IMG/VR virus record: IMGVR_UViG_2721755646_000010
Direction: 5' to 3' (one strand)
Length of the DNA: 64,000 nucleotides
Source: a virus
Lineage: Duplodnaviria; Heunggongvirae; Uroviricota; Caudoviricetes
The stretch's first letter is position 1; each line of letters begins with the position of its first letter. Shown piece by piece: positions 3,001-6,000 of the stretch. The position numbers are program-made.

Positions 3001-6000
3001 TGTTTGCGCATTGATGCCGAGATACGCTTCCAGTCTTCGCGGTCGTTGTCGATAACTTCATTTTTTGCCCAGCGATGGATGCTGCCGTCAATGTTTCCGG
3101 CATCCACATCACCAGGCCAGAGAGCGTAGGCCAGTTCGTCATCCAGTGTTTTCCATGTCTGCTTATATTCGCGACGAATGACTGCAGTGACAGGGGGGAT
3201 TTTTTCTGCTGAGTTTTCAGTGTGCTGTCGGTGGACTCTGGCGCGGGCGAGATCAACAACAGACGTGTATTTTCCGGTTTCCTTGCGTTCACCTTCGCGA
3301 CGTTTTTTCCAGATGCGCATTTCTGCCTGAATTTCGGGCCATTTGGCACCAGGCTTACATTTATGCTTAACCCACCCGATGGCATGCAGCTTAAGCTCCG
3401 GATACATGGCGTTAACTTCTGGCATTTTCATCAACGCTTCAACGATATGTCCGTCGAATGTTGCCATGTCTTCCTGCAACAATTCCTGCGCGCTAATCAC
3501 CATATCAACGGTGATGTTTTCACATGTGTCGAACTTAACCATGACAGCGTTCTGTACTTCAGGGGCCAGCTTGTCAAAAGCGACGTTCATCGGATCGGAT
3601 TCAGTCTCAACCGGGACAAAGGAAGCAGCCCCCTCATCCCAGCGGTTTTCCTGCATATATTCAGCATCCCAGGAATCGAGGGCAGGGCGGGGTATACCGG
3701 GTTTATCCTCGCAAACAAGAAATTTATAAGCGCAGTCCTGAGCAGCCGGATAATGCTCCAGGAATTGCCAGTGAAATTTTGCGCGGGCGCGACGTTCATC
3801 ACCGGCTTCAATGGCAGTGGCTACAGCGACTGCACCTTCTTCCTTTATTGCCTGTTCGTCCGGAATGGCGGCGCAAATAAAGACTTTACTCATTTTGTTT
3901 TACCTCATTACAGATTTAAGGGTGAACAAATCCCTGCCATTGCTGGCATATAAGAATGAAATCGGATGTTTATTACGGAACTGTTTTAAAGACCTGCCGG
4001 GATTTCGTTATTATCCTGGTGAATAACTTTATCGACAGGGTAACAGTTACCGGGAATTTTCTGTTCGGTTGCTGCAGTCACACACTCCTGCATTGTCCTG
4101 TGAACACTGACTGCAATATCAACTGGCTCTCCGGAAACAAGAAAAACTGTCAGAACAAGTGCAAATGCTGTATTCATTGCCAGCATCCTTTTTGTATCGG
4201 ACGTAAACGGGCCAGCATTGAAAGAATGCATATTTTATTTAATAACTCCCGTTCGTGTTTTCTCTTGTTAATGGCATCTTCAGTAAATACAGGGTTACTG
4301 ATAGTGACACCAATTTCAAAACAACCTTCAGACGTATTAACGTTTGGTAATAACGTTTCCATTATCGCGTCCTCAACAATGAATTTTGTGATGCGGTGCC
4401 TGGTGCCTCCAGGTGACGTTAACCAGTTAACAATTAACGCCGGATACAGAGAATCCACCCATAACACTGTTTTTAGCTTTAACTGTTCCGCGTGCGCTTA
4501 GCCGCATTCACTGCATCACAAAATTCACTTTAAAAAGGGCGGACATCAGTTCATGGGCAAACAGATGCCGCCAAACGTCACCAGAAAATTGATAACAGAG
4601 GGCGTTGCAGCGGGGTTGTCACTTAAGCGTATGGTCAACCTGACAACCCGGTGTCCTCAACGGGGAAGGAATAACCCCGCCATACTTACCGCTGCGCCAT
4701 TTCGCGGAGTGCCACAACCGGAAGCGCACGGTCGACGAAAATTTAACGACAGGCTATCTATGAACCAGCAACCTCGCCGTGCGCTTTCGCGTTATGCTCT
4801 GACTTTTCAGAGAAATATCCTTTCAGTAAACTGTCAGTGCCGGATGTTCACCCGTGTCCGGCGCACGCACTCCACTTCACCCGTGGAGAACTCCTTAATT
4901 ACCAACCCTCAGGAGGGTGAATGTTAAAATCAACTCTTATTGCTAAATGCCTTTATCAAAATCGCATGGTAAGCAGCATTTCAATAGGCGAGTCTGCAGT
5001 TAAAAGTATTTTCGAAGAGTACTTTCCCGGGCATGATTTTAATAAATGGAATACCAAATTACCGCCAGCAGTTTCAACGCGTATTCTGAAAGCAACCGAA
5101 AGAGCAAGTACAATTCGCGTTAACTATTTCATTAAAGATTTGTGGGATCTTTGATATCCACAGAGCCTAAAGTATGTGCATATGGATGTGCTATTATGCG
5201 CCCTCGCAGATTTGCATCATTTTCTAAATTCACTGAACGAAACAGGGCATCAACAAGGCTCTGTACAATGCAAAGGCAATCGAAGACTGTCGCCGTTTCT
5301 GTTTTGATTGATGAAAGAACATGGCCATTCACGCAAACAGAAATTACCCGTTTATTAACATCGCTTTCCTGCTTTTGATTATCAGAACCATATAGCCCAG
5401 AAAAAGCATTGCGCACATTACGAACCATATTATCGATGGTTTCTTTTTCTGCGGTACTAAGGTCAAGAGTAGCCAGTTGTGAACGAACTATATTCGATGC
5501 CATTTCCTGTAATGGCGTTGGTAAATCTTTAAATTCCATTATTAGCCTCGTTGGTTAGCTATTAACGTGGGTATGTAATCATTCTGGCAATGCTTAATGC
5601 CGCTGCTTTTTCCAGATTGGTGATATCCTGCTCCAGAGCGGACAGATTTTCAGCCTGCTTAGCCCTGGCTTCATTGGCCCATTTCAGGTCCTGCACCGCC
5701 TTAATTTTCTGGTGCATCCACTCATAAAGTTCATCATCGGTATAGTCTGGCGCGATGATGACGGGGTCTCGTTTCTGCATGTCGGCTCCTTGTGGTTAGC
5801 GTTGCCTGCTTTTTAACCACGTCAGGCGAGGTGGTATCCTCTGAGGGGTCTGTTACTCGAGAGGAAATTGGTTATGAATACAATCAAGTTTTCTTGCCCA
5901 GAATGTGGTGGCTAAGTCTTTGACACATCCTTTAAGCCGCAGGGCTCTGACAGTTTCGCGGGAGCCATCTGCAAAAATTGTGGTCACCTTGTAACTGAAG

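Follow-up and report, generated by a model that had tools for sequence, protein, structure and literature searches.

The untranslated dicF region of two lambdoid prophages contains a conserved, apparently pseudoknotted RNA domain next to DicF

Introduction

Why would two prophages share a near-identical block of several hundred base pairs in an otherwise mosaic region? The question is raised by the IMG/VR virus record IMGVR_UViG_2721755646_000010 (Caudoviricetes), of which a stretch of 64,000 nucleotides (nt), hereafter the window, was analysed. A preliminary description, made from the sequence alone, noted that about 450 bp upstream of a gene whose product begins METLLPNV is near-identical between 4440-4900 and 51250-51720, and suggested a structured RNA or cis-acting site. 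Our analysis indicates that this block is very probably the untranslated ydfC-dicF-dicB region of a dicBF-type early-left operon, present in two lambdoid prophages of Escherichia coli O157:H7. The dicF locus, which encodes the cell-division-inhibiting small RNA (sRNA) DicF, has long been known. The same block is found in the Qin prophage of E. coli K-12 and in most complete E. coli genomes, and the main finding is therefore already known. The block itself is the textbook dicF locus and adds nothing new; one of its sub-features is a candidate for novelty. This sub-feature, element b, is the conserved, apparently pseudoknotted 5' neighbour of DicF. Very different temperate phages carry it together with a terminator, and no Rfam family corresponds to it. 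Conservation alone had allowed a first-pass reading to pick out a real sRNA region.

Results

The conserved block and its coding status

Alignment of the two prophage regions with MAFFT placed the block at 4270-4868 (copy A) and 51079-51677 (copy B). The copies are identical in 544 of 601 columns (90.5%), and identity in both flanks is 25-55%. The near-identity reported earlier is real, and one of its limits has to be moved: on the dicB side the block extends about 170 bp further, into the N-terminal half of the METLLPNV gene. Identity is 89% in that half (4270-4362), 97.7% at 4363-4536, 100% at 4570-4589, 98.4% at 4597-4722, and 83%, with two 1-nt gaps, at 4723-4868. It drops to about 44% past 4869. 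Within the block, an island at 4542-4569 is only 47% identical and corresponds to a replaced DicF stem-loop. The window has exactly two occurrences of a 17-nt DicF core pattern, compared with 0.06 expected. The block was located in 4631 of 5426 complete E. coli genomes, and a 538-bp query from copy A (4363-4900) is found at 80% coverage or more in 4085 of them. The two occurrences and the presence in most E. coli genomes exclude chance as the cause of the match. Outside the block, a 40-nt island just upstream of the exonuclease gene start (3909-3948 and 50719-50758) is 100% identical amid 30-55% identity and holds a small minus-strand hairpin, UGCCAGCAAUGGCA.

No open reading frame (ORF) conserved on either strand was found among the copies and homologues. 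The plus-strand ORFs cited in the preliminary description, at 4553-4927 (124 amino acids, aa) and 51400-51687 (95 aa), exist and lose their common frame between the copies, as it had stated. Insertions and deletions (indels) that are not multiples of three separate close homologues within the block; for example, the segment of hairpin H1 in element b varies from 18 to 24 nt. The block is non-coding, as had been argued, and it is read on the minus strand.

An opposite reading is that the block encodes a protein or another plus-strand product, such as the ORFs of 124 and 95 aa or an antisense RNA, or that it contains the promoter of the genes starting at 4921 and 51724. Such ORFs do exist, and these two plus-strand genes, each with a good Shine-Dalgarno sequence, begin about 50 nt past the distal edge of the block, head-on to the early-left operon. 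Against this, the ORFs differ between the copies in start, length and frame, and homologues carry indels of 1-5 nt that break them. The terminators and their U-runs are on the minus strand, which is also favoured by the G.U pairs. K-12 has the block without an adjoining plus-strand gene, and a simple scan covering 4780-4920 found no promoter-like plus-strand site for the two genes. We consider a plus-strand product extremely improbable. At their 3' ends the two genes touch or overlap the stop of the minus-strand gene upstream.

Identity of the locus

The query matches an E. coli O157:H7 chromosome at 100% identity; dicB, ydfC, a helix-turn-helix (HTH) repressor and a Cro/CI gene are annotated there around the block. 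The RefSeq gene order, which runs on the opposite strand to the window, is integrase, excisionase, exonuclease, DUF1482 protein, dicB and then the unannotated block. Beyond the block are a convergent hypothetical gene, a second hypothetical gene, ydfC, a third hypothetical gene, the HTH repressor and the divergent Cro/CI gene. The METLLPNV gene is dicB, and the block lies upstream of it in the minus-strand sense and in no other. The layout around copy B matches those of copy A and of K-12 Qin. It was read from ORFs in the window, as the record of strain PV15-279 is not collinear with the window over 47 kb.

K-12 Qin is 95% identical over the whole query, with the order dicA-ydfA-ydfB-ydfC-dicF (a non-coding RNA, ncRNA)-dicB-ydfD. 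The alignment begins at position 3563 of the K-12 locus (L001), 21 nt past the ydfC stop at 3542. The window shares with Qin the gene order, the untranslated region, a terminator-type sRNA and an RNase III stem. Unlike Qin, it has extra genes between ydfC and the block, including the convergent plus-strand ORF, and a copy A DicF with a different hairpin that scores under the Rfam threshold. These features are consistent with published work, in which dicF is located within the long untranslated region of the dicBF operon (PMC5069750, PMC9438474) and enterohaemorrhagic E. coli (EHEC) strains carry four dicF copies (PMC7873438). Nothing material counts against this identity of the locus.

The early-left operon would be the counterpart of the lambda pL operon, transcribed from right to left on the minus strand from a repressor-controlled promoter beside the cI/DicA-like gene. 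Its untranslated RNA would form a chain of four modules, which are, from 5' to 3', sub-block a, element b, the linker with DicF, and domain d. The features are listed in Table 1.

Table 1. Positions of the modules and neighbouring genes in the window; bit scores and E-values (E) refer to RF00039 for DicF and to the covariance model built in this analysis for element b.
Feature	Position	Strand	Remarks
Sub-block a	4723..4868	-	Distal untranslated segment; corresponds to the 3' untranslated region (UTR) of the upstream gene in K-12; less conserved
Element b, copy A ('pre-DicF domain')	4597..4722, core 4604-4718	-	149.4 bits, E 2.7e-43
Element b, copy B	51408..51533	-	151.1 bits, E 8e-44
DicF, copy A	4537..4587	-	Variant; 43.5 bits, E 5.8e-8 (match 4537-4586), below gathering score
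DicF, copy B	51346..51398	-	Canonical; 75 bits, E 1e-14, full model 1-52 (match 51346-51397)
Domain d	4379..4528	-	Structured dicF-dicB spacer; copy B equivalent within 51172-51345
dicB, copy A	4174..4362	-	62 aa, METLLPNV...; RefSeq 'cell division inhibition protein DicB' in the 100% identical O157:H7 record
dicB, copy B	50983..51171	-	From window ORFs
cI-like repressor, copy B side	53041-53679	-	From window ORFs
cro-like gene, copy B side	53723-54013	+	From window ORFs
Small plus-strand ORFs	4921-5154 (77 aa), 51724-51945 (73 aa)	+	Mutually unrelated; strong Shine-Dalgarno

The first module, sub-block a, would be a 3'-UTR-like segment. It contains the hairpins GCCGGA...UCCGGC, CUCUGA-AAAG-UCAGAG and AAGCGCACGG...CCGUGCGCUU, and its fold is not significant (z = -1.6).

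DicF in the two copies

The search of RNA families proposed in the preliminary description matched the Rfam family RF00039 (DicF), whose gathering score is 48 bits, in copy B; the match in copy A is sub-threshold. Copy B differs by one base from K-12 DicF, annotated at L001 3883-3935, and by every sequence-based test it is a DicF gene. Copy A keeps the first 20 nt exactly, with an intact 5' seed (UUUCUGGUGACGUUUGGCGG) that has 100% identity to copy B. In place of the usual stem-loop stands another terminator hairpin, GGCGGCAUCUGUUUGCCCAUGAACUGAUGUCCGCC, and a U-run (4532-4536) comes after it. This replacement accounts for the low Rfam score and for the divergent island in the middle of the block. 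The predicted fold has, in both copies, an unpaired seed ahead of a terminator hairpin with its U-run (-17.3 kcal/mol in copy A and -15.4 kcal/mol in copy B). The copy A hairpin has a z score of -2.3 and is also found in the IMG/VR locus L134. Judged from RefSeq O157:H7, K-12 and the ORFs around copy B, both copies lie within untranslated sequence of a prophage early operon that has ydfC-type genes on one side and dicB on the other. Copy A is best called a DicF variant with a swapped hairpin, which fails the Rfam threshold.

Published DicF targets are ftsZ and pykA, paired via the 3' part of the sRNA, and xylR, paired via the 5' end (PMC5069750). As its 3' region is replaced, copy A has probably lost the ftsZ pairing while keeping the 5' seed. 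EHEC may thus carry DicF paralogues with differing target sets, one of which, copy A, keeps the xylR seed and swaps the ftsZ/pykA hairpin. The 5' end of DicF is produced by an RNase E cut between AUCAAU and UUUCUGG (PMC5069750). Its 3' ends are produced by termination or by RNase III, the latter giving a 72-nt form, and the RNA binds Hfq (PMC5069750, PMC9438474). In the window, a 9-nt AU-rich linker containing the published RNase E cut lies between element b and DicF. RNase E would cut this linker, leaving DicF as a single-stranded seed followed by a Rho-independent terminator hairpin. In the published mechanism, transcription of the early operon either stops at this hairpin or reads through into dicB.

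A scan of genome contigs with a 16-base DicF pattern was uninformative on distribution. Nearly all of the at least 120 loci are chance matches in unrelated bacteria, and those in Citrobacter, Kluyvera and Pantoea fall in coding sequence. Among the matches listed, a locus of E. ruysiae (L113) is the only real homologue.

The structured spacer between dicF and dicB

Domain d is closed by a perfect stem of 16-17 bp, formed by GUGAAUUUUGUGAUGC (4513-4528) and GCAUCACAAAAUUCAU (4379-4394). RNAfold gave -67.2 kcal/mol (z = -4.56), and none of 200 shuffles is as stable. The dicB Shine-Dalgarno sequence GAGGA (4370-4374) and start codon (4362-4360) directly follow the 3' arm of the stem. A 3' end 19 nt beyond the 53-nt DicF falls within the 5' arm, so that the position of the stem matches the published 72-nt product and domain d fits an RNase III-type substrate (PMC5069750). 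RNase III would cut the stem of this ~150-nt domain to give the 72-nt DicF. The same cut may create a new 5' end for the dicB mRNA, immediately before the ribosome-binding site.

The layout resembles known devices. The RNase III site in the lambda pL/N leader is likewise a long stem before the ribosome-binding site of an early-left gene. Like DicF, SroC-type intra-operonic sRNAs are freed inside an operon by termination and RNase E (PMC9438474). The sequences are different, and unlike either system, dicBF combines both devices around one sRNA. Domain d also resembles the Rfam family STnc100 (RF02076) and is not a member, since it scores 32.5 bits (E 4.6e-5) against a gathering score of 47 bits. 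The closing-stem layout and the UCACCNGGAGGCACCNGGCACC hairpin are common to both, whereas alignment to a true copy is possible only in patches. That copy is located in the window at 16821-17029 (+) and matches the full-length family at 175 bits. Adjoining it on the other strand is a match to the anti-GcvB sRNA AgvB (17031-17090; 56.6 bits, just at its gathering score). The pair lies downstream of tRNA genes at 16479-16551 and 16635-16708 and upstream of a 636-aa ORF at 17178-19088.

Fold and conservation of element b

Element b would be a pseudoknotted multi-helix domain of about 120 nt. Two pattern scans of IMG/VR gave about 140 instances with 76 distinct sequences. In the window, our covariance model finds exactly two copies, one per prophage. 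The comparative model contains five helices. The closing helix P1 (GUUGUGG/CUGCAAC) is accompanied by helix Pa (CCGCG-AAAUGG-CGCGG), helix Pb (CGGU/ACCG), which encloses hairpin H1 (CGGGG-UUAUUCCUU-CCCCG, with a pyrimidine-rich loop), and hairpin H2, which has an 8-bp stem (GGUUGUCA/UGACAACC) and a 19-nt loop (GGUUGACCAUACGCUUAAG). A candidate pseudoknot joins CCAUAC of the H2 loop to GUAUGG, which lies on the 5' side of the internal loop between Pb and H1; 99.2% of its cells are paired.

In a MAFFT alignment of 43 representatives, 94.5% of the cells in the five-helix model are paired, compared with 36-60% when the partners are slid. Eight pairs are changed on both sides, compared with 3.3 +/- 1.3 in shuffles. 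An alignment of 78 distinct sequences to the covariance model gave 96.2% paired cells, compared with 36-59% with partners slid. In this alignment nine pairs, in 37 cells, are changed on both sides, compared with 3.4 +/- 1.3 pairs in shuffles, and none of 500 shuffles reaches this value. H1 occurs with at least seven different stems (CGGGG/CCCCG, CUGGG/CCCAG, CUGGGG/CUCCAG, CGAGG/CCUCG, CAGGGG/CUCCUG, CCAGGUG/CACCUG and CGGGU/ACCCA), all of which pair, while its loop stays pyrimidine-rich. One pair of Pb is seen as U-A, C-G and U.G, and one pair of H2 changes from U-A to C-G. The pseudoknot position that the search patterns left free is U-A (38), U.G (3) or C-G (2), and never C-A. The 147 G.U cells indicate the strand, with the sense (operon) strand pairing better than its complement, 96.2% versus 91.3%. 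These compensatory changes in the aligned sequences support the fold. Conservation of structure across homologues had been named earlier as a check, and the helices of element b do keep pairing through two-sided changes. A structured RNA or cis-acting site had been the earlier suggestion; DicF, the RNase III-type spacer and this further domain, backed by covariation, bear it out.

Several alternatives for the fold and identity of element b were rejected. The minimum free energy fold of the single sequence has junction helices that are only 76-86% paired in homologues, and the comparative model is preferred. RNAalifold proposed a different H2 register, pairing GGUUG in the loop, which was rejected since the outer stem changes from U-A to C-G in agreement with an 8-bp H2. 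An apparent U-to-C/A-to-G compensation in locus L150 is off by one position and is a mismatch with a wobble pair. Other H1 classes conserve neither an alternative hairpin, UCCUU/GAGGA, nor the match of 'UUGAGGAC' to the dicB ribosome-binding context. No Rfam family matches element b in the window, P1, cdtI or F1055, permissive thresholds included, and ARAGORN found no tRNA-like gene in 4300-5000. A tRNA-like or C4 (RF01695) identity is rejected on these results, though C4 and tRNAs were detected elsewhere in those loci. No account of the structure or function of element b was found in the searchable literature, a scope that excludes Faubladier 1990, 1994 and Lobocka 2004, so that an earlier description is possible.

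Element b in other phages

A sensitive blastn search of phage genomes revealed that query positions 183-305 (window 4596-4718) are present without DicF, dicB and sub-block a in several phages. The carriers without DicF are cdtI, Stx2c phages, PhiR40_1, 2H10, Salmonella phage F1055 and phage P1 (76%). In P1, cdtI, Stx2c and F1055 the element is 76-89% identical, and the flanking sequence is unrelated.

Phage P1 carries element b in the ban operon leader, about 25 nt past the C1-controlled promoter Pban. The element overlaps the 'dicF-like region' of the P1 record (NC_005856, 68791-68892) and is found by our covariance model at 87.8 bits (E 1.8e-23). The P1 annotators had thus noticed a similarity to the dicF region. 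As in the window, element b is followed by an intrinsic terminator. Unlike the window, the region has neither a DicF seed nor dicB, and tRNA genes follow. The similarity lies mostly upstream of the place where DicF would be, and the closing helix is not kept. In cdtI, element b is about 280 nt downstream of a strong pL-like promoter, which follows cI and its terminator. In F1055 it follows a cI-like repressor and precedes a recombination gene. On the cro side of the cdtI immunity region (L124), Rfam matches to C4 antisense RNA (540-627, minus strand, 68 bits) and isrK (652-728, minus strand, 60 bits) lie side by side.

This distribution bears on whether element b is maintained for its own sake. 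Only DicF, dicB and the RNase III stem might be selected, with the rest, element b included, hitch-hiking through recent recombination among prophages. The prophages are mosaic, most copies are more than 90% identical, and sub-block a is only 83% identical and, by blastn against phage genomes, missing from the P1, cdtI and F1055 copies, as it is outside the DicF class generally. However, element b is kept amid unrelated sequence in P1, cdtI, Stx2c and F1055, which lack DicF, dicB and sub-block a, and its helices keep pairing through two-sided changes. Hitch-hiking seems quite improbable for element b. For sub-block a it is plausible, and more likely than for element b.

Structures further along these operons were also noted. 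A weak STnc100-like match (33.4 bits, E 4e-4) is located in P1 just upstream of tciA (L123 4342-4461, plus strand). With this match, the P1 ban operon shares the module order of dicBF: a pre-DicF-type domain, a terminator, a domain-d-like structure, and then a gene annotated as possibly cell-division-inhibiting. In cdtI (L124 3126-3260) and F1055 (L268 2630-2800), a second long hairpin with a U-run, ACAGAGAAGAGCA...UGUUCUUCUCUGUUUUG, follows the terminator of the pre-DicF domain. It lies just ahead of the ribosome-binding site of the next gene, a placement that parallels domain d.

Possible roles of element b

An intrinsic terminator is predicted downstream of element b in 135 of 138 instances, and after 70 of 71 distinct downstream sequences. 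The remaining one has a longer hairpin and a U-run when inspected by eye. Element b sits 20-60 nt upstream of the terminator, whose U-run begins 39-86 nt after the start of the H2 3' arm. At least nine unrelated classes of linker and terminator follow element b. That a terminator is always present, while linkers and terminators are unrelated, favours a cis role on the transcribing or processing machinery. Transcription of the early operon must presumably cross this terminator, for dicB in Qin and for ban from Pban in P1.

From these sequence patterns, we tentatively propose, as the leading reading, that element b may act in cis and set read-through at the terminator that follows it, as a put- or EAR-like antiterminator or as an attenuator. 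A broader version of this proposal is more doubtful: element b could be a distinct, undescribed class of pseudoknotted phage RNA, spread over lambdoid, Stx2c, cdtI, F1055-type and P1 phages, always within a repressor-controlled early operon and always ahead of an intrinsic terminator. Such an RNA would govern read-through by acting on RNA polymerase or a different host factor, with no phage protein needed. In that case DicF would derive from its linker and terminator, turned into a trans-acting seed. If read-through control is real, element b would represent a second type of RNA-only antitermination among enterobacterial phages, and would account for the expression of dicB, the recombination genes and P1 ban past a strong terminator.

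Two known systems offer comparisons. Antitermination by the put RNAs of phage HK022 is blocked by mutations in the zinc-binding domain of the beta' subunit of RNA polymerase. EAR, the eps-associated RNA of Bacillus subtilis, is an intra-operon processive antitermination RNA. Like element b, EAR is a single structured RNA of about 120 nt between the coding genes of an operon, upstream of terminators. The organism and sequence are unrelated, and the analogy is one of layout only. The HK022 put RNAs are cis-acting, protein-independent processive antiterminators (PMC9378689). As with element b, they are folded RNAs in a repressor-controlled early operon, upstream of terminators to be read through. 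A position after a repressor-controlled early promoter and before terminators is also that of element b at P1 Pban, at the cdtI pL-like promoter and in F1055. Because element b is found in unrelated phages, it appears to have no obvious need of a phage protein. However, put has two stem-loops in about 70 nt and occurs as an L and R pair, whereas element b has five helices and a pseudoknot in about 115 nt and is present once per prophage. Element b resembles put and EAR in layout only and is not a member of any family tested.

Several observations weigh against read-through control. No conserved alternative or mutually exclusive pairing was found between element b and the terminator. Riboswitch-style pairing of element b or the linker with the terminator 5' arm was examined by eye and rejected; only matches of 4-5 bp were found, unconserved between classes. 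The covariance model finds element b once in each prophage of the window and nowhere on the cro side, in contrast to the L and R pairs of nut and put. The put/immunity (pL-pR) region of HK022 has no similarity to element b by blastn-short or by the covariance model with its filters off, and put homology was rejected. As a separate result, a simple scan found intrinsic terminators further down the operon to be no more frequent than expected by chance.

Other observations weigh against element b as a functional RNA. The homologues all come from phages of Escherichia, Salmonella, Klebsiella and Shigella and are closely related, and the compensatory changes therefore represent few independent events. 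Most of the H2 loop and of the pseudoknot was fixed by the two search patterns, which builds in part of their invariance and left a single pseudoknot pair able to vary. In stability, the single-sequence fold does not exceed shuffled controls (z = -0.5), and the closing helix does not form in the P1-phage type. A natural deletion variant is also present in L134 (IMG/VR UViG_2654588054_000006). It lacks 92 nt between two CGCGAAA repeats at ~1630-1755, which takes out the 3' half of sub-block a, the 5' strand of helix P1 and half of Pa.

The constant terminator can be read in another way, as the 3' end of a stand-alone or processed trans-acting ncRNA. Such an RNA would act through its pyrimidine-rich H1 loop (UCCUU/CUCC), pairing with purine-rich ribosome-binding sites, or by binding or titrating a host protein. 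A structured domain, a linker and a terminator form the classic layout of an sRNA gene. In P1 about 25 nt separate the element from a promoter, the H1 loop remains rich in pyrimidines through at least seven stem changes, and the 19-nt H2 loop is highly conserved. In addition, DicF shows that the module can evolve trans-acting seeds. On the other hand, Qin-type element b is about 0.9 kb from its promoter and would require 5' processing, and the H2-loop conservation is partly imposed by the search patterns. Neither Rfam nor the searched literature holds an Hfq or sRNA annotation over element b, and no target or partner is known. We regard a trans-acting ncRNA as rather unlikely.

The position of element b next to DicF raises a further alternative, in which element b and sub-block a are biogenesis or stability scaffolds with no other activity. 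They would place RNase E at the AU-rich linker, guard the upstream ydfABC fragment from 3' exonucleases, and exclude Rho from the long untranslated RNA. The published RNase E cut is 9-10 nt past element b (PMC5069750), and the entire untranslated stretch of ~570 nt is densely structured. Stem-loops are known to direct the processing of sRNAs derived from 3' UTRs (PMC9438474). The other phages argue against scaffolding. The cdtI-class linker is only about 12 nt and is not AU-rich. It is too short for an sRNA seed, and the general role of element b therefore cannot be DicF biogenesis. In P1 no RNA to be guarded lies upstream of element b, which is at the transcript's 5' end, and the conserved loops and pseudoknot exceed the needs of steric shielding. 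A pure scaffold is unlikely.

Other RNA features of the window

Rfam also matched a hok/sok-type antitoxin RNA, sok/CssrC, once in each prophage, at 11703-11852 (+) and 58607-58781 (+), with 104 and 113 bits. A match to sar RNA, the P22-type antisense RNA of the antirepressor region, is located at 37971-38037 (-), with 66.7 bits.

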